NCBI GenBank assembly: GCA_963845755.1
Contig: CAWJTV010000039.1
Location: forward strand, 352,001 to 416,000
Direction: 5' to 3'
Length of the DNA stretch: 64,000 nucleotides
Origin: an uncultured Planctomycetota bacterium
GTDB lineage: Bacteria > Planctomycetota > Planctomycetia > Isosphaerales > Isosphaeraceae
In this document: one piece after another, positions 52,388 through 64,000 of the stretch
How the letters are laid out: the number at the start of each line of letters is the position of its first letter
Numbering within the stretch: position 1 is the stretch's first letter
Position numbers and translations under genes: made by a program
The notes under the pieces: generated by a model
Database searches by the model: none
Told to the model about the DNA's origin: nothing
What the model saw: the letters and a program-made list of their open reading frames with translations, nothing else

Positions 52388-52795
52388 ATGCCAGAGCGAC
52401 GAGCCGCGCCCCGGCTGACTTCCGGGGAGATGGAGATCCTGGCGATGCTCTGGGATCGCGGGGACTTGACGCTCTCCGAGGCCCACCAGGCGCTGGGGCG
52501 GCCGATCGGCTACACGACGATGCAGACGCGCCTGAACCGGCTGGTCGCCAAGGGGGTGGTCTCGCGGTCGGAGGGACGTCCCGCCCGTTACGGCGCGGCC
52601 GTGGGCGCCGAGGCGGTCGGCACGCGGCATCTGGATCTCCTGCTGGAACGGATCCGGGGGTTCAAGATCGTCCCCCTGGTCGCCCATCTCGTCCGGGATC
52701 GGCGGCTGACCTCGGAGGAAATCCGCGAGTTGAAGCGATTGATCAACCAGGCCGAGGCGTCGAGCCGTGGCCATGGTGAGGAGGACCGGTCATGA
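52388..52795 (+). CDS. BlaI/MecI/CopY family transcriptional repressor
   Basis: LTSGEMEILAMLW, YTTMQTRLNRLVAKG, LTSEEIRELKRLI; ATGA overlap with the M56 gene. Confidence 0.92.
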   Translation: MPERRAAPRLTSGEMEILAMLWDRGDLTLSEAHQALGRPIGYTTMQTRLNRLVAKGVVSRSEGRPARYGAAVGAEAVGTRHLDLLLERIRGFKIVPLVAHLVRDRRLTSEEIRELKRLINQAEASSRGHGEEDRS

Positions 52796-55700
52796 GCCTG
52801 CGCGCCGATGAGATCCTCCCGATCCTGCTCCGCACGACCGGGTTGCTCGCTCTGTCCGTGCTGGCGGTTCGCGTGGTGCTTGGCCGGTTTTGCCCGGCTT
52901 CTCCCGCACTCTACCGCGCGGCCTACGCCCTGGCGCTGCTCCAGGGCATCCTGATCGTACGACTGTCCATCCCGTTGCCCTGGGGTGGGGGGCTGATGAC
53001 GAGCGATTCGCACGCGCCATCGTCCCTCTCGAGGGACGAACCGACGGCGTTCCCCGCCATGACGCCCACAACCACCTCATCGGGTGAGCACACGCAAGAC
53101 ACCGGACCGCCGGCAAACGTCGCGGCCCTCCCGACCCGCCACGACGGATCGGCCGCGATTCCTCGGTCCGTCGTGAACTGGCCGGGATTCCTCGTCGCGG
53201 GCTGGCTCGCGGGCATGGTCGGATTGCCGGCCCTGCTGCTCGTCGGTTACGTCCGGTTCGTCCTCGGGCTCCGCACCAGGCCGCCGGACGAGGCGGTCTG
53301 GGCCGAGGAGTGGTCGTCGCTGCTGGCCGAATGCGGCGTCCCGCGATCCATTACCCTCCGGGTGAGCGATCAGATGGGCCCGATGCTCTGCCGCATCCCC
53401 GGCGGCTACTACCTGATCGTGCCCGGTTGGTTGTGGCGCCGGCTTGATGCCGCGGAACGGCTGGCGATCCTTCGGCATGAGCTGGCTCACTACACCCGGG
53501 GCGATCTCGGAAAGTCGCTGGCGGTCCACGCGCTGGCGCTGCCCCACTGGTTCAACCCGTTCGCCTGGTGGGCGGTGCGGACGTTCGACGAGTGCGGCGA
53601 ATGGGCCTGCGACGACATGGCAACCGGAGGTCCCGGAACCAGCACCAGCGTCGCGTACGCCCGGGCCTTGCTCCGATTGGTGGAAGCCGGCCCTCCCACA
53701 CCTGCGTTCGGTTTCTCGGCCCGGGGCCCATCGCTGTCGACCCGCGTGCGGAGGCTCCTGCAACCTCGACCGGCTTCCGACCCGCTGCGGACACGTTTGG
53801 CTCGTCATCGGCCTTGCGATCGCACTCCTGGCGTTCCACCTGGTTCGTCCCGAGCTGGGAGCCAGGCCGTCTCGGGCGGCCGATCCTGAGGGCAACCGGT
53901 TCGACCTTTACGGCGATCCGCTTCCGCCCGGCGCGTTGGCCCGGCTGGGAACCGTGCGGTTCCGTCCGGGCCAGAGCGTCGAACGGCTCGCGTACGCGCC
54001 GGACGGGAAGACACTGGCCTGCTGGGACTCATCGAACACCCTCACTCTCTTCGAGGCGGCGACGGGCAAGCCGATTCGCCGACATCCCTTCGCGCAAGCC
54101 GGGGCTCACGTGCTGACTTACCTGCCGGGCGGCAAGTCGCTGGCGGTCGTCGGGTCGCACGACGAAGTCGTCCACTTGTGGGATTTCGCCTCGGGAGCGG
54201 AGCCAGCACCCGACCTCGGCCCGCGCCCGCTTCTGGGGTGAGGGAAGTCATGATCGGCGACGATCGTGAGAAATTCTCCACTTTCGCCGTGTCGCCGGAC
54301 GGCAAACTCCTGGCCGGCGGCAGCTCCGGCTTCGGCGATCGGGGCCGGATGATCCGGCTCTGGGACGTGGCCACGGGGAAACGGCTCGACGAGTTGAAAC
54401 CCCGGCGCGACTTCGAGCGACGGCCGAGTCACATCCTCTGGATCGCGTTCAGCTCCGACGGCCGGACGCTCTACTCGCTGAGCGGCGATCCTGGCTGGAG
54501 TCCCGGGATGTTCAACAAGGGAGGAAGTGGTATCCTCTACACCTGGGACGTGGCCCGCGGCGCGGAGGTCCACCATTTCGCGGTGCCGCTCCCTTCGCAA
54601 CAGGGGTTCCGGCGGACCCTAACCATCTCGCCAGACGGGCGGATCCTGGCCGTCGGGGCACCGACGAAGCCAATCCATCTGATCCGCCTGGCCGATGGCA
54701 CGGAGCTGCTGCGAATCGACGGCCTCGGGGGACGGGCCCACACGCTGGAGTTCTCGCCCGATGGGACGCGTCTCCTCAGCGGAGGAGAGGATCAAGCGGC
54801 CCGGATCTGGGACGTTGCGACGGGCCGGCCGGTCGGAGAACCGATCAAGCACCGATCCTGGGTCGAGGCCATCGCCGTCGCCCCCGGCGGGCGCGTGGCC
54901 GCTTCCGGCGGGCAAGACTATCTGATCCGGACCTGGGACCCGAACACGTCTCGGGAGTTGGTCCAGAGCCCGGCTCACGAGTTCTGGGTGGCGGGTATTG
55001 CCTTGTCGCCCGACGGCGCGACCGCGATCACGTCCTCCTGGCACGACACGATCCGGATCTGGGATGTGGCAACCGGCCGTCAACGTCGCGTGATCGGTGA
55101 TCCGGATGGGGCCGGTCGCCATGGCGCTGTCTCCGGACGGTCGTGTGCTGGCGGTCTCGGCCGGCCGGCCCGCAGAGATCCGCCTGTTCGACCCCGATTC
55201 GGGCCGAGAACTGAGGCGGCTGCACGGCCGCACACGGGGCGTCTACCAGTCGATGGCCTTCTCCCGCGACGGCAGCCGGCTCGTCGCCGCCGGCGGCGAG
55301 GATCAGACCGTGCGGCTCTGGGACGTGGCCACGGGCGAATCCCTGTGGATCATGAAACACGAGGAAAGTGTCCGCTTCGCCACGATCTCCCCGGACGGCG
55401 CCACGATCGCCGCCGCAGGCTGAGGACAATCGACGGGAGGCGCCGGCAACGTCATCCGAATCTGGGATGCGAAGGACCGGCCGACAGGTCCGCGAGCTCC
55501 GGGGACTCAAGGGATCGGCTCAACGCGCTGGTTTTCTCGCCCGATGGAAAACAGCTCGCGACCGGGGGGATGTCGGTTCGTGAAGGCGTTGGAGACGGCG
55601 GCCGTGGATCTCGGCTCTCCCGACTTCAGCGACTCGGTCCATCTCTGGGACGTGGCCACGGGGACCGATCTCCGCCAGTTCCCGGGCGAACCGGCCGAGT

Positions 55701-55957
55701 AGTGGGGCCGAAGCCGAACCGTCAACGCCCTGGCGTTCACCCCCGATGGACGTACCTTGATCACCGGCGAGGGTGACGGCACGATCGTGCTCTATGACGC
55801 GGCGACCGCGGCCGTGCGGGCCACACTCCGCGGACACCTCAATGGCGTCAGTGCTGTGTCCGTGTCATCGGACGGCCGGAGGCTGGCTTCGGCGGGCATG
55901 GACTTGACGGGCTTGGTCTGGGATCTGAACAGGGTGCTTACGCCGGCAAGAAAGTAG
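52792..55957 (+). CDS. M56 (BlaR1/MecR1-type) metallopeptidase fused to WD40 repeats (several frameshifts)
   Basis: TM helices, HELAH zinc motif, HWFNPFAW, EWACDD; then TM, DLYGDPLPPGALARLGTVRFR and WD repeats to LTGLVWDL. Confidence 0.85.
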
Positions 55958-55958
55958 G

Positions 55959-57350
55959 TCAGTCTGGAAAGCCTGACCGACGTGGGGCCGCGACGGGCTC
56001 CAGGCGGATCCGGTTGCGGTACGTCCCCGCCCGGTGGCCGACGCAATCCCAGCCGCGGCCGACCGACGTCGCCGCCAGCGTGACGAAGATCGATGCCGGT
56101 GCCGTGGGCGAGGACGAGTCCGCCGGAAGGCTGAACTCGATGGCATTGACCGGCACGCCCCAGCCGGCCGTCGGCGAGAGGGTGGTGTCGGCCTGGGCCG
56201 CGTAATCGTCGAGGGAAAGCCGCGCGACGGCTCGCTCCTCGTCGTGGAACGTGATCGTGAGGGCCTGCTCGGGCTCGAGTCAACCGCGGGCTAGCGTGTG
56301 GAATGGACCTTTCTCGCTGTTGGACGCCTCGACGACGCGGAACGTCCGATCGGCCTCGACGAACGCAAACCGCGCCGGCCGGCCGAACGGATAGTCGAAG
56401 GGCCGAACCTCGATCCGGGCGCCCGGACACGGCGAGAACTCCAGAAACAGCCGGCGATGCCCCCGGACCTCGACGTCGCAGAACGAATTGAGATGCGAGT
56501 CGATCGGCCGGTCCAGCCGCGTCGCGGCCTCGAGCGCGATCCGGCCCGGCTCCGGCCCCGCGTCGACGCGAGCGTCGCCGAGCCTTGTCCTCGGAACTCG
56601 TAGAACAGGACGCACGATCGCTCATCAAGTCGCCGGCCGTCGCGGAACCGGGGCTCGGGGCCTTCACGATCCCGGCGCGGACCAGCACGGTCGGGCATCC
56701 GTCCGGGGATTGGTTCAGGAAGGTCAGGAGCGGCTGGACCGAGATCGTCAACGGCGCCATGCGGGCGATCAGGGAACCGTCAGAAGTCTGGACCATGGCA
56801 TTCGGTTCGAACCGGACACTCCCGGACGGCGTGTGGTTCGCCGTGTCGGAAAGCAACTCGATCGGGGCCAAGGGGATGTCCCGAGGATGGGTCGCGGGGG
56901 TGGGTGGCCGCAACGTGGCGGCGGCGCCGCGCCGGCCAGGGCCGACCCGATCGCCAACAGCAAACCCCCAACCCATCCCCGCGCGCCCGGCCCCCGCCAG
57001 GGACGGACCGCGGCCATCGCCATGGTGGCGGCGATCGCCACGGGCACCAGCCAGATCCCCGCCATCGTGATCGGGAACAGGATCCGCAACACGATGCACC
57101 CCCCGACCCAGGCCGCGGGCCATGCGGGCAAGAGTAGCCGGAGGGCCGCGATGCGGTCCTGCCGCAATGCGGCCAGCGACGCGATCGACAGTCCCAGGAC
57201 GACCGGCGGCGCCACGCGGTTGGACCAGAACCGCGGGTGCCCGAATCCAAAACCGCCCGGCGACAACCACCACCACGCCAGGGCCAGCAGACCATGCCCG
57301 ATCAGCACCATGAGCCAGAACATCCGCCGGATCCGCTGCATCAGACTCAC
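55959..57350 (-). CDS. Hypothetical membrane protein (N-terminal TM helices plus soluble domain; frameshifted)
   Basis: GAGG-preceded GTG; several hydrophobic helices; pieces 56769-57371, 56280-56615 and 55959-56156 join into one coherent reading. Confidence 0.6.
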
Positions 57351-57731
57351 GCCCGTTTCCTCGCCGCCCATTCCACGCCCCTTCCAGCTCGGCCCCGCCG
57401 GATGAGTCCTCTCGCCGTACAGGAGACGAAGCCTTCCGTGCGCAGGATCAGTGGTGGCACAGTTCGACGTTCGCCGATTGTTCTTTGTTCTTCAGACATG
57501 ATCAGAAATGAGGAATTCCGTATTTTTTCCCGTAGCCTTCGGGCGAGAATCCTTTATTACTGATCATGTCACTGAGGCACGACCTGTTTCGATTCGGGTG
57601 CGACTCACTCGCCCCCGTCACGGGCGGGAACCACGTCCAGCCCCCGTCATTGCGGCCCATGTCGGTGCGTTCGCATCGTCTTCGAGAGTCGATGGATGAG
57701 GTGTTGCCTCCCAACATCTGGAGATTTTCTC

Positions 57732-60700
57732 ATGTCTTCCTTAAACCCCAATTCTCGCCCCAGGCGCCTGTTCCGGCTGAGGGATGGCCTCGGGAACACC
57801 GACCGGTCGCGGACCCGCCGCAGCTCCCGTCTCGGACTGGAGCCGCTGGAAGACCGCGTCGTCCTGAGCAATTACACGGTCACGAACGTCGACTACAGCG
57901 GCACCGGCAGCCTGGGCGCCGCCATCGCGGCCGCCGTCACCAGTGATGATTCGCATGCTCAGATCGATTTCAGCTTGCCCGACAACTCGACGATCGCGCT
58001 GACGGCCAGCGACGCGGATGCGAGCAGCACCTACGGCCCGACGGCGTACGTCGTCTCGGGGAGCGGCGTCCATATCACGATCGACGGGTCGGGCTCACCG
58101 GGTCTGACGATCGACGGATCGGGCGCGATCCGCGTGTTCGCGGTGACCAGCCCGGCCTCGCTGACGCTGGAAGACCTGACGGTCTCGGGTGGCCTGGCCC
58201 AGGGCTTCAACGGCGGCGACAGCTATCATGGTGGCGGCGGTGGCGGCGGCGCGGGCTTGGGCGGGGCGGTCTACGACGACGGCGGTTCCTTCACGGCGGA
58301 GGGCGTCACGTTCACCAACGACGTCGCCCGCGGCGGGAACGGCGGGAATGCCGGCGATGGCGAAGGGGGTAGCGGCGGCGGCGGAGGTGGACTCAGCGGC
58401 GCCGGCCAGAGCGGGAGCGCCGGCGGGATTGGTGGGATCAACAGCGGCGGTGACGGTGGCAGCGGCAACGACGATGACGATGGCGATGACGGCGCCAATG
58501 GCGGCTTCGGCGGCGGTGGTGGCGGTGGGGGTTCTGGCTCCGAAGGCGCCGGCGGCGCCGGCGGCGCCGGCGGTTTCGGCGGCGGTGGCGGTGGTGGCGG
58601 TAGCGGGGAATCCCCTGGCAGAGACGGCTTCGGCGGCATCGGTGGCGGTAAGGGTGGCAGCGGATCGATTGACTCGGGCGGAGGGGGAGGAGGAGGCGCC
58701 GGACTCGGCGGCGGCATCTTCAGCAATGGCGGCTCACTCACCCTCGTGAACGACACCTTCACCGGCGACACCGCGCAAGGAGGGGCCGGCGGCACCTCCA
58801 TTACAGCCAGGGCAGTGGATATGGCGGCACCGTCTTCGCCCTCAACGGCACCTTCAACGCCACCTTCGACACGTTCAGCAGCAACATCGCCCAGGACGGC
58901 GCCGGCAACGTCCTCGATAGCACCGATATCTACATCCTCACCGGCTCGGTAGACTCCGGTGACTATGGTGGCGGCACGTTCGATGGCACCTTCGAAGATG
59001 ACATCTTCGGCCAGAGCAACGCCACCACCGCGGATATCGTCATCCCTGATGAGGTCAACACAGACGTCGTCCCTGACGAGGCCCTCCCCGGTTCAGGGTT
59101 CAGCGTGACTGCCCAATACGACCTGGTCAGCAACAACAGCCCACCAGCGGGGGAGGGGGCTACCGACGGCCTACCCACCGACGGGCCAGGCATGCTCATC
59201 GGCGTTGATCCCATCCTCTGTGGCCTGCGCTCCAATGGCGGGCCGACGCCGACGATGGCCCTGATGTCCAACAGCCCGGCCCTCGCCGCGGGCATCACGG
59301 CCGACGACCCGGTCACGGGCAACCCGACCACCACCGACCAGCGCGGTTACATCCGTGCGGCCACGCCCGACATCGGGGCCTACGGGGGCACCCAGGCCAC
59401 CTCGACCCTCCCGACGGTCACCGGCCTGAACCCGACCGATGGTCCGCAATCCGGCGGCACCTCGGTGACGATCACCGGCACCGGCTTCGCCACCGATACG
59501 GCGGTGGACTTCGACACCACGCCGGCGACCGACGTCAAAGTGGTCAGCGACACGACCATCACGGCCGACAGCCCGGCCGGTACCGGAGTCGTCGACGTGA
59601 CCGTGGTCACCCCGGGAGGCACCTCGGCTACCTCAACCGTCGATCAGTTCACCTACCTCGCCGCGCCCACGATCACGATCCGCCCGAGTGTCTCTGGACC
59701 TGGGTACGACCACGGTGGGGATGGCCGGGACGGAGCAGAGCTACACGATCTGTGGTGCGAACCTGACCGCCAACGTCACCGTCACCGCGCCAACGGGTGT
59801 CGAACTGTCCGACGACGAGGGCACCACGTGGAATTCCTCACTGACGCTGACCGAGAGCGACGGCACGCTGAACCGGACGACGATCGAGGCGCAGGATCGA
59901 CGCCTCGGCGGCGGCGGGCAGCCTTACCGGCTCGGTTGCCAGTACCAGTACCGGGGCGACCACGCAGGACGTGGCCGTCACCGGGACGGTCAAACGCGAG
60001 GCGCCAAGTGGCACCCTCGTCGCCTCGATAGCGCAGTCGTCCTACGGCGAGGACGTGACGTTCACCGCCAACTTCACCGCGGCCGCGGTCGGCACGGACC
60101 CCATGACCGGGACGGTCGCCTTCTACGACGGGACCACGTATCTCGGGACCGAGCCCCTGGCCAGCACGTTTCCACCCGTCGCGGCCGACACCCGCACGGC
60201 GACCCCGTTGCTCGTCTTTCTTGGAGTCTTCGGAATCGGCCAGCCTGTCAACCTCGTCCCTGGCCGTCGGCAGCCATAGCATCACGGCGGTCTACTCGGG
60301 CAACGCCAACTATGCCACGGCTACCACGGCGCCTCCGCTCGCGTTCCCGGTGGCCCAGGCCGCGACGAAGCTCGCGCTGGTCGATTCGAGCACGGCCCAG
60401 GGGACCAGGCTCAGCGCCGATGTCGTGGCGACCACGCCCGGCACTCCCAGTGTCGTCGGCTCGGTCGCGTTCTACGTGGACAACGCGAGCTCGTCGGCAC
60501 GGAATCGGTCGCGAACAGCGTCGCGGCCCTGAATGTCGCGACGCTGTCCCCGGCGCGCACACCTTCCGCGCGGTCTTCACCGGCGGTGCGGATTTCTTGT
60601 CGAGCACGTCGCAATCGACCGTGACGGCGACGGCGACGGACCCCCCGCAAGTGGCGAAGGTGTTGCGCTTCGGGTTCCACGACCAGAAGACCTTCGTGAT

Positions 60701-61184
60701 GATCGATTTCAACGGCCCACTCGACGCGACCTCGGCCGAGGCCATCGCCAACTATACGATCGCCGGGCCAGTCGGCAAACATGGGCACAGCAGCCAGCGG
60801 ATCAAGGTCGGTTCGGCCCTCTACGACGCGGCCACCCACACCGTGACTCTGGTCCCGACCGCGCGGCTGAACATCCACAAGACCTACACGCTGACGATCA
60901 ATGGGAGGACACCCAGCGGGGTCGCCAATCCTTCGGGATTGATGCTGGACGAGGTGGGCAACGGCGTGCCTGGAAGGAACTACCTCACGTCGCTGACCTG
61001 GAGGAATCTGTCCGGGCCGGCCCACGCGCTGCCGACCCTGCATCTGGTCGATGCGGCCCGTGAGGCAAAGGCGGTTGCCAGGACCTCGATCCAGCACGCC
61101 CACACGACCGGGCACCACGCGGCCGTCAACTACCTGCTGGAGTCGGGATTGTTGCGCGTGCCGAAGCACGATGCAAGGAGTTGA
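57732..61184 (+). CDS. Secreted Gly-rich adhesin-like protein (planctomycete extracellular motif, choice-of-anchor-Q-like, IPT/TIG, Ig-like); frameshifted
   Basis: LGLEPLEDRVVLS, GSLGAAI, poly-Gly tracts, NGGPTPTMALMSNSPA...DQRG...PDIGAY, PTVTGLNPTDGPQSGGTSVTITGTGF, VGSHSITAVYSGN. Confidence 0.8.
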
Positions 61185-61419: not shown

Positions 61420-61448
61420 TTGCATGGCGCGGCGGTTTCGGGTACAAT
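61420..61448 (+). promoter_or_regulatory. Candidate sigma70 promoter of the peroxiredoxin-kinase gene
   Basis: TTGCAT-17 bp-TACAAT about 115 bp upstream of the ATG. Confidence 0.55.
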
Positions 61449-61563: not shown

Positions 61564-62970
61564 ATGTCAACCCTGATCGGCAACCTGGCCCCGGACTTCG
61601 ATCTCCCTTGCACGCGGTTCGCAGAACCGGGACGGGAGCGGGTCGCACTGAGTGATTATCGTGGCCGATGGCTGGTCCTGGTGTTCTACCCGCGCGACTT
61701 CTCGCTGATTTGCCCGACCGAGCTGATCGGCCTGAGCCAGCGATTCGACGAATTCGCGGCGCAGGGACTGCGCGCTACTGGGGATCAGTTGCGACTCGGT
61801 CGCCTCGCACGAGGCGCTGGATCGCGACGCCGAGGGCCAACGGTGGGCTGGGGGGATTGAACTTCCCGCTGGCGAGCGACCTGGACGGGGCGACCGCCCG
61901 GAGCTATGGCGTCTACCTGGAACGGCAGGGGGTCGCGGTTCGTGGGCTGTACATCATCGATCCGGGCGGCCTGGTGCAGTACCAGGTCGTCCATAACCTG
62001 AGCGTTGGGCGGCGGAGTCAGGAGGTCTTGCGGGTGCTCATGGCCCTCCAATCGGGCGGGTTGTGCCGCGAGGACTGGATGGCCGAGGACCCGGCCTTCG
62101 ATCCCTTCAAGGCGATCCGGCCGGGGAGCTATTTTTCCCACTACATGATCGAGGCCGAGGTCGGCTCCGGGACGTTCGCGCGGGTCTACCGGGCGCGAGA
62201 CCTCCAGCTCGATCGGCCTGTGGCTCTGAAGGTGTTCAAGCCGGATTGCCCGGTGACGCCAAGCGCCGCCCTGGCCGAGGCCCGAGCGGCGGCCGCGCTG
62301 AACCACCCGAACCTCTGCACGATCTACGCGGTGGACGACACGGCGGGCGTTCCGATCATCACGATGGAGTACATCTCCGGCCAGCCGATCAGCCAGCTCG
62401 CGCGGGAGAACCCGCTGCCTCTCGATTCGCTCCTCTCGATCGGCCGGCAGATCGCCGAGGGGATGGCTGCCGCCCACGGGGCCGGCATCGTCCATGGTGA
62501 CCTCAAGCCGGAGAACGTCCTGGTGACTGCGGAAGGGCTGGTCAAGGTGCTCGATTTCGGGCTGGCGCGTCGACTGCGCCAGAGCCCGCCGGTCGCCTCC
62601 GATGACACGGCCGATCTGGGCCTCGCCGAGCAAGGCGCCGGGCTCTTCGGCACCCCCCGGTTCCTCGCCCCCGAGCAGGTGCCGCGGCGAGCCGGCCGGC
62701 CAGGCCAGCGACGTCTTCTCGCTGGGCCTCATCCTCTACGAGCTCGCGACCGGCAAGATGGCTTTCCCTGCCGGCAATCTCCTCCGGATCCTCGACCAGA
62801 TCCGCTCGGTCGAGCCCGAGTCCCTGGCCGCCGAGGCCCCCGAGCTGTTCACCCCGCTTCTTCGTCAATTGCTTGTCGCCGACCCGGTCCAGCGCACGAT
62901 CACTATGAGGGAGGCGGCCGAGTACCTGCTCGGCGCCTCCGAGCCCCCGGCTGGGTTCTCCGCGCTCTGA
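61564..62970 (+). CDS. 2-Cys peroxiredoxin (AhpC/Prx1-type) fused to a Ser/Thr kinase domain (indels ~61768, ~61813, ~62681)
   Basis: IGNLAPDF, FYPRDFSLICPTE, GISCDS, FPLASD, RGLYIIDP, VGRRSQEVLRVL, GGLCREDW, then in the same frame VGSGTFARV, VALK, HGDLKPEN, DFG, GTPRFLAPE, SDVFSLG. Confidence 0.88.
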
Positions 62971-63096
62971 GCGAGATTCAATTGTACAGAAACGCGAGAT
63001 GCGAGATACTTCTCCAGGTCGATCATATTGGCTCCGCGACGTGAGCGGGGCGACTCTCCCGATCTCGGGACACTTCAGAGTCGGAGGGCGACGATC

Positions 63097-64000
63097 GTGC
63101 CCCATTCGAACGCCGACCGGAATTTGCTCTTCGGTGTGCTCGCCCTTCAACTGGAGCTGATCGACGCTCGCCAGTTCGCCGATGCCTGCGCGGGCTGGGC
63201 GTCGCGCAAGGAGATCGCACTGGCCGACCTCTTGACCGAGCGGGGCTGGATCACAAAGGACGACCAGGACGAGGTGGACCGGCTCCTGGAACGGAAGTTG
63301 AAGCGTCACGGCGGCGACATCCACGCCAGCCTGGCGGCGGTCACCGACGAACGGGTCCAAAGCGCGGCGGCCGAGATCACGGATCCCGATCTGAGACATT
63401 CGCTTTCCCCGCCACCACGGGCGGGCGGGCATGTGCTGATCTCCACGATCGGGCACACACCCGAGAGCCGTGAGCGGTATACCTTGACGCGGTTGCACGC
63501 CCAGGGAGGGATCGGCCAGGTCTGGCTGGCACGCGACGCCGACCTCGGCCGCGAGGTTGCGCTCAAGGAACTACGGCCCGAGCGAGCCAGCCACCCGGAA
63601 ATCTGGGCTCGCTTCCTGGAAGAGGCGCAGGATTACCGGCCAGCTCGAGCATCCCAACATCGTCCCGGTCCATGAACTGGTCACGCCCGCCGAGACGGGG
63701 AAGCCGTTCTACACCATGCGGTTTGTCAAGGGACGCACCCTGGCCGACGCGATCCAGGCTTATCACCGTGACCGCGTCGCGGGTGGCGCCGGTGCACTCG
63801 GGTTTCAGGCCCTCTTGAATGCGTTTCTCGGGGTCTGCAATGCGGTGGCCTATGCCCATTCGCGGGGGGTGATTCATCGCGACCTCAAGCCACAGAACGT
63901 CGTGCTGGGCGACTACGGCGAAGTGATCGTCCTGGATTGGGGCCTGGCCAAGCTCGTCGATCGGCCGGAGGAGACGATGACCCCGGCGGTGTCGCTCGAA
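63097..64000 (+). CDS. Ser/Thr protein kinase, 3'-truncated by window edge (frameshift ~63630)
   Basis: RBS GGAGGG; ADRNLLFGVLALQ (paralogous to the 45470 N-terminus), HAQGGIGQV, HRDLKPQN, DWG. Confidence 0.88.

Follow-up and report, generated by a model that had tools for sequence, protein, structure and literature searches.

The window analysed here is a stretch of 64,000 nucleotides from an uncultured Planctomycetota bacterium of the Isosphaeraceae (contig CAWJTV010000039.1, positions 352,001 to 416,000), the family to which the closest named protein matches also belong. The host genome assembly (G000) measures 14.3 Mb and is 88% complete. Close to the end of the window lies a gene, running from an ATG at 61564 to a stop codon at 62968-62970, whose product joins a 2-Cys peroxiredoxin to a Ser/Thr kinase. 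Its features are given below, with Cp for the peroxidatic and Cr for the resolving cysteine.

61420..61448, plus strand: sigma70-type promoter candidate (TTGCAT-17 nt-TACAAT), with a -10 hexamer, TAnAAT, conserved upstream in relatives
61564..62970, plus strand: peroxiredoxin-Ser/Thr kinase fusion gene, about 468 aa after allowing three +1 indels
61564..62105, plus strand: Prx1/AhpC-type 2-Cys peroxiredoxin domain with a short C-terminal arm (Pfam, alignments, fold matches)
61690..61713, plus strand: active-site PxxxSxxC (Pro 61690, Ser 61702, Cp 61711-61713)
61763..61768, plus strand: frame break 1, an extra base relative to intact relatives and P0387, probable assembly error
61802..61804, plus strand: Cp+30, the Phe/Tyr site of the decamer interface; Ala in the window, Glu or Asp in most fusions
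61813..61813, plus strand: frame break 2, an extra base relative to intact relatives and P0387, probable assembly error
61842..61853, plus strand: GGLG motif (alignment)
61941..61943, plus strand: catalytic Arg of the peroxidase triad (alignment)
62064..62066, plus strand: Cr, in GGLC..W, aligned with Cr of Prx1-3
62067..62162, plus strand: tether with in-frame junction, 33 residues from Cr to the first Gly of the kinase Gly loop
62121..62940, plus strand: Hanks-type Ser/Thr kinase domain (Gly loop 62163, VAIK Lys 62229, alphaC Glu 62277, DFG 62553, APE 62667, subdomain XI Arg 62893)
62493..62501, plus strand: non-RD catalytic loop, HGD (alignment)
62681..62681, plus strand: frame break 3, an extra base relative to intact relatives and a contig of another run, probable assembly error

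The initial annotation had read this gene as a peroxiredoxin that continues in frame into a complete Hanks kinase, and the follow-up bears this out, as each of the motifs it named was found again in its place and the Pfam models AhpC-TSA and Pkinase both match one open frame (61668-63041) across the junction. The closest intact relative, P0001 (476 aa), is 93% identical over the longest piece. Compared with intact relatives (4/4), the window gene carries exactly three additional single bases and none at the junction, in agreement with the earlier statement that the indels sit within the domains. The junction itself (about 62050-62170), for which a check had been advised, is bridged gap-free by assembled contigs from two other runs (X2-9 and X6-22, spanning 61997-62147 and 61904-62149). 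The extra base at 62681 is missing from one contig of another run, and P0387, a near-identical database protein, stays in frame through breaks 1 and 2; the frameshift of P0387 itself, just before the resolving Cys, is absent from the window and from the bridging contigs. Frame breaks are frequent in the host assembly (33 of 307 kinase loci, plus several neighbours in the window), and dN of the window gene is well below dS in both halves (dN 0.07-0.28, dS 0.39-1.08). We regard the three indels as probable assembly errors; that the window copy is a recent pseudogene in one strain seems quite unlikely, and the reading of the family would be unaffected either way.

In an alignment of 27 upstream regions, each fixed column of the TAnAAT hexamer (T, A, A, A and T) is kept in 90% or more, pointing to a housekeeping promoter; a consensus promoter scanner called none upstream of the gene, and no shared operator is evident in the upstream alignment. 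The neighbourhood in the window comprises a BlaI-type repressor followed by a BlaR1 peptidase M56/WD40 protein (52388-55776, plus strand, frameshifted), a membrane-protein gene without a Pfam match (55792-57371, minus strand) that is divergent from the fusion in several relatives, and a frameshifted gene for a Gly-rich surface protein with IPT-TIG repeats (57696-61184, plus strand), apparently an insertion separating the fusion from the divergent gene that usually adjoins it. Downstream, a large RD-type Ser/Thr kinase gene (63100-64000 in the window, plus strand, reaching about C39:418011, with a frame break at about 63630) lies as an apparent insertion between the fusion and a gene for a HAD-family phosphatase (PF13419, DxD intact) at G000:C39:418156-418824, about 2.2 kb past the window end; in relatives the latter directly follows the fusion, as at L089:2693-3385. 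Of 48 carrier genomes with a HAD gene, 40 have it within 1.7 kb of the fusion. The idea of a dedicated partner was rejected, since the gene is near-core (107/121), occurs in 58 of the 67 genomes that lack the fusion and is missing from 5 carriers; we read the link as synteny, and a role for the phosphatase is conceivable. In three of six fusion-free genomes checked, the membrane-protein gene adjoins the HAD gene, a clean absence of the fusion. Among distant carriers, nothing recurs consistently in the 46 neighbours that were scanned out of 78 picked, and no conserved substrate or regulator was found beside the gene in the carriers scanned.

Among homologues, fusion is the rule. A query made of the peroxiredoxin half and the linker returned 428 proteins of fused length, with both Pfam domains in all 120 of those listed, and a distant seed returned 476, with both domains in 119 of the 120 listed and the remaining one truncated. 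Where short matches bear the fusion-type motif, in most of them kinase sequence follows, the frame is lost or the record is cut off, and at the protein level no clear example of the two domains encoded by separate genes was seen among the short matches. Homologues always encoded as two genes had been named as grounds for abandoning the idea of a peroxide-sensing fusion kinase; those recovered are fused, not split. Within the host family, 54 of 121 genomes carry a single copy of the gene (53 whole, one split over two contigs). It also occurs, again as a single copy, in 9 of 400 other genomes sampled across the phylum, as well as in a Pirellulales MAG and in the cultured Paludisphaera borealis, Planctomicrobium piriforme and Thalassoglobus sp. 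JC818. The ESM Atlas cluster of the fusion has 143 members, and one short match, P0405, carries an Acidobacteriota label. Conservation was assessed in an alignment of 86 fusion members (A2, 36-87% identity to P0001), taken from 31 of 120 close matches, 35 of 149 profile matches covering both domains and 20 genome loci, and in a further set of 116 fusion sequences, largely new, at least three of which appear to overlap A2 loci. A set of 80 related loci, picked by kinase-only patterns, held two fusions, the rest being used only as kinase outgroups. Some variants have an extra domain, P0122 and L138:1237-3432 a second kinase domain at the C-terminus, P0123 and P0136 one of about 130 aa at the N-terminus.

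The first half reads as a typical 2-Cys peroxiredoxin, with PxxxT/SxxC and its Arg, Cr in a C-terminal arm and a Prx1-type fold. Cp is kept in 84/86 members of A2, Arg in 84/86 and Cr in 85/86, and each of the three in 116/116 of the further set; the active-site Ser/Thr position holds one of these two residues in 83/86, Ser in 78. Glu(Cp+3) and a Gly-Arg motif are invariant in fusions, matching thioredoxin-recognition residues by spacing and motif. For this comparison Glu50 of Tsa1 was placed relative to its Cp using what we take to be the Tsa1 number of that cysteine. In Tsa1, Glu50 and Arg146 serve thioredoxin recognition (PMC4749877). Thioredoxins and TrxB are encoded in G000, and no AhpF over the cut-off was detected in this 88% complete genome. 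The chain falls outside AhpC proper (95 bits against a TIGR03137 cut-off of 272) and below the cut-off of the PrxU NCBIfam model (119 against 270). It also differs from the hyperoxidation-sensitive (GGLG+YF) peroxiredoxins, having GGLG or a variant but not the YF helix. A YF-like pair at 189-190 is confined to the close clade (Tyr 17/86 and Phe 35/86 in A2) and lies inside the first segment of the kinase; a conserved YF motif at the junction was rejected, as it is seen in close relatives and missing from distant ones. From the motifs, a B-type dimer (interfaces as defined in PMC3337327), an inter-subunit Cp-Cr disulfide and peroxidase activity would be expected.

Two members of A2, P0146 and P0161, have lost Cp and Arg and retain the resolving Cys and the kinase. 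That such chains are still fused would suit a redox-blind scaffold, in which the peroxiredoxin domain only dimerises two kinases constitutively, and so would the loss of the ring interface described below, which leaves a plain dimer. A pure scaffold, however, would be expected to lose Cp, Arg and Cr, and their retention in 84-85 of 86 and 116 of 116 sequences makes this reading quite improbable.

Control could also run in the reverse direction, the kinase tuning its own peroxidase, or be absent, the two enzymes being merely co-expressed. Thr88-Pro89 of the fusion aligns with the Thr-Pro of mammalian Prx1 (Thr 66/86, Pro 68/86), the site, Thr90 in human Prx1, at which Mst1 and Cdk1 are reported to inactivate Prx1 (PMC6406269). 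The fusion is often the sole Prx1 of its genome: no standalone Prx1/AhpC was found in G000 (88% complete), and by hand count 37 of 54 carrier genomes have no Prx1-like match besides the fusion, so that peroxide removal alone could explain the conserved cysteines. Against this, Thr-Pro is inherited from standalone peroxiredoxins and is less conserved than Cp and Cr, and 58 of 67 fusion-free genomes of the family have no Prx1 match at E<=1e-25, which means that the peroxidase is dispensable there. Nor would such an arrangement need a fixed tether or a non-RD loop, and we consider it unlikely. A complementary distribution of fusion and standalone Prx1 was rejected, since the latter occurs in 17/54 carriers versus 9/67 non-carriers (hand count).

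The second half has the full complement of Hanks motifs: Gly loop, VAIK Lys, alphaC Glu, HxDxKxxN, DFG, APE, the subdomain IX Asp and the subdomain XI Arg. Across A2 the Lys is kept in 86/86, the alphaC Glu in 85/86, His and Asp of HxD in 86/86 and DFG in 84-85/86, and the kinase is predicted to be catalytically competent by motif. The non-RD loop, HGD, noted earlier for this gene was found again at 62493 and proved to be family-wide, in 80/86 of A2 and in 113/113 sequences of the further set long enough to include it; among 224 kinase loops of the host retrieved with one pattern, 217 are HRD and HGD occurs only in the fusion gene. There is no transmembrane segment, as had been reported (peak 19-residue hydropathy 1.22 in P0001), and this, the HGD loop and a score of 200 bits against 450 for NF033483 set the protein apart from the PknB/Stk1 PASTA receptors. 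Nor does it belong with the anti-phage kinases MADS6, PD-T4-6 and PglW (NF047741, 157 bits against 460; neighbours of housekeeping type), and PADLOC kinase matches were rejected as defence genes because they cover the kinase domain only and are generic.

Two cysteines of the kinase could in principle take part in a thiol relay, in which oxidation of the peroxiredoxin would be passed to Cys228, to Cys251 or to a cysteine of a substrate, as in Prx1-ASK1. Cys228, between beta3 and alphaC, is present in 104/105 close relatives including the window, and Cys251 in 78/86 of A2. The former is nevertheless confined to one clade (34/86), for which reason it was rejected as a universal relay Cys; the latter has an equivalent that is, we presume, common in related kinases. 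The competing resolving Cys is moreover retained in 85/86. Relays that start from a peroxiredoxin are established in eukaryotes (PMC4749877); for the fusion we regard one as rather unlikely.

The distance from Cr to the Gly loop is nearly fixed, being 33 in 81/86 members of A2, 34 in four and 30 in one, with a Gly at Cr+33 in 116/116 of the further set. Tether identity is only about 30% though the length is kept, and the activation loop ranges from 13 to 95 residues. The beta3-alphaC loop is likewise stable (16 aa in 78/86); since other loops within the domains also keep their length, the fixed tether shows structure, not regulation. AlphaFold2 run on A2 gave both folds with confidence (mean pLDDT 88.5, pTM 0.70), with low values at the tether (161-180) and the activation loop. 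Foldseek matched PknB and Prx3/BAS1 (5jcg, TMt 0.83; 5zte, 0.79-0.85), with no chain spanning both domains among the matches listed, and a docking prediction of two peroxiredoxin domains with the kinase domain scored 0.03 and carries no weight in either direction.

A further departure from standalone peroxiredoxins concerns the oligomer. From Cp to Cp+30 the fusions align gap-free with mammalian Prx1, and the aromatic residue that is usual, not obligatory, at the decamer (A-type) interface is missing from them: Phe or Tyr stands at Cp+30 in 0/86 of A2 (Glu 43, Asp 28, His 1) and 0/116 of the further set, compared with 30/30 standalone planctomycete Prx1 (17/17 and 13/13), and Phe, Tyr or His in 29/31 of the nearest short standalone peroxiredoxins. 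Asp(Cp+27), His(Cp+32) and Trp(Cp+35), beside the interface, are retained in fusions. At the same site in the Arabidopsis 2-Cys peroxiredoxin (Cp = C54), the mutant F84R is described as a dimer in both redox states (PMC3733160). These observations bear on a switch of oligomer, in which reduced decamer rings and oxidised dimers would gate activity by altering how concentrated the kinases are locally. Redox-linked shifts between decamer and dimer are typical of Prx1, and Ser-type active sites are reported to favour decamers (PMC8300647), which together with the three retained residues would speak for a switch. Against it, the Cp+30 aromatic is missing in 202/202 fusions and mostly replaced by acidic residues; moreover, Ser-type sites stabilise decamers even when oxidised, and such enzymes tend not to change their oligomer state on oxidation (PMC8300647), so that even a ring probably would not switch. 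We consider gating of this kind distinctly unlikely, and a redox-driven dimer/decamer shift of the fusion unlikely, ring or no ring; on the strength of one residue and one mutant, we favour a fixed B-type dimer. The initial annotation had proposed a peroxide-gated one-component kinase driven by oligomer switching. The gated kinase gains indirect support from catalytic residues near-invariant down to about 36% identity, the fixed spacing and the fused homologues, while the dimer/decamer route is weakened by the lost aromatic and the active-site Ser.

In quick trees of the peroxiredoxin domain, the fusions occupy one side of a branch, with SH-aLRT of 99 against 30 standalone Prx1 and 96 against 61; 25 near-duplicate rows were left out of the first tree and 33 rows, including 5 long branches, out of the second. 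The nearest standalone relatives are Thr-type Prx1 of 177-183 aa that end about 12 residues past the resolving Cys, and the kinase was thus probably joined to a short-tailed peroxiredoxin, in the position that the YF helix occupies in long-tailed Prx1. In the kinase tree, 56 of 59 fusion kinases group together (support 99), and the other three, all HRD, fall among unrelated kinases. These three members (P0157, P0176 and L137:796-2187) have a fusion-type peroxiredoxin on unrelated RD kinases and keep the 33-residue spacing. The kinase appears to have been replaced behind a retained peroxiredoxin sensor, as would be expected of a portable sensor module; some chance is left that the three are chimeric records.

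The head-to-tail B-type dimer, local unfolding and the Cp-Cr' disulfide are established Prx1 chemistry, and activation-loop phosphate generally matters less to non-RD kinases. Tethered 33 residues past Cr, the kinase should move with the arm, and on this ground we propose a dimeric peroxide receptor kinase. Hydrogen peroxide would oxidise Cp, the inter-subunit Cp-Cr' disulfide would form and shift the kinase-bearing C-terminal arm, and this movement would switch kinase activity, the protein probably staying a dimer and not a ring. In typical 2-Cys peroxiredoxins oxidation locally unfolds the active site and Cp joins the Cr of the partner (PMC8300647); their C-terminal tail wraps around the neighbouring subunit (PMC3733160). 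As long as the protein is reduced and fully folded, the arm may hold each kinase N-lobe on the dimer, and oxidation may free or re-pair the kinases; activation on oxidation, rather than the opposite, is a guess that we favour modestly. The non-RD kinase would follow the state of the peroxiredoxin and not activation-loop phosphate, which would make the signal quickly reversible, and thioredoxin with thioredoxin reductase could reset it. This non-RD step is soft, given a non-RD plant kinase that remains under the control of phosphorylation and is able to signal independently of its catalytic activity (PMC8463890).

That the fusion is a cytoplasmic one-component peroxide receptor kinase, with an arm moved by a disulfide and reset by thioredoxin, is a reading of the sequences to which we give a little better than even confidence. 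We lean by about as much towards the wider view that a peroxiredoxin has here been turned from scavenger into receptor, having lost its ring interface and gained a non-RD kinase 33 residues past Cr, so that catalytic unfolding would serve as a mechanical switch for phosphorylation and the module would be portable. Several points weigh against a dimeric receptor of this kind: the loss of Cp and Arg in 2/86, the Ser-type site (78/86) linked elsewhere to stable decamers (PMC8300647), the three frame breaks of the window copy and the lack of a conserved adjacent substrate or regulator.

In bacteria, OxyR is the textbook sensor of hydrogen peroxide and sensing is credited to transcription factors (PMC4749877), and in eukaryotes, where the partners are separate and transient, it is an open question how the peroxide signal passes from peroxiredoxin to kinase. 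If our proposal is true, the fusion would be a one-chain bacterial version of that signalling; it would assign a defined input to one planctomycete kinase out of hundreds and might be used as a template for genetically encoded peroxide switches. With sensor and kinase in a soluble chain of about 50 kDa, their coupling is testable with few Cys mutants. The initial annotation knew of no characterised example, and a literature search likewise returned no study of a peroxiredoxin-kinase fusion, and the NCBI and JGI names are automatic; the main text of a planctomycete kinase survey, as far as available, does not contain 'peroxiredoxin' or 'redoxin', and its accessory-domain tables may list the fusion (PMC11032199). 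Both halves belong to known families; the one-chain form is known by automatic labels.

With typical 2-Cys peroxiredoxins (human Prx3, 5jcg, and Prx2, 1qmv; Arabidopsis BAS1, 5zte; the short-tailed Prx1 of Chloracidobacterium and Paenibacillus) the fusion shares the fold, PxxxT/SxxC, the Arg, Cr in the arm and GGLG, and it differs from them in having a kinase in place of the YF helix, no interface aromatic and mostly Ser for Thr. The bacterial Hanks kinases PknB, PknA and StkP are the best kinase matches by sequence and fold, and all their catalytic residues are found in the fusion. Unlike them, it has no transmembrane segment or PASTA domains, its sensor is N-terminal and cytoplasmic, its loop is HGD and not HRD, and its alphaC region is three residues shorter. 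A peroxiredoxin is reportedly also fused to a second enzyme in CotE of Clostridioides difficile, a peroxiredoxin-chitinase of the spore coat, in which the partner is a hydrolase and not a kinase. The same architecture as that of the fusion is named by pipelines only, as 'bifunctional peroxiredoxin/serine/threonine-protein kinase' at NCBI (P0327) and 'AhpC/predicted Ser/Thr protein kinase' at JGI. With the eukaryotic Prx1-Mst1 and Prx1-ASK1 systems it likely shares the principle of a peroxiredoxin acting as sensor of hydrogen peroxide above a Ser/Thr kinase (PMC6406269, PMC4749877); there the two are distinct proteins that interact by binding or by disulfide exchange, whereas here they form one bacterial chain.
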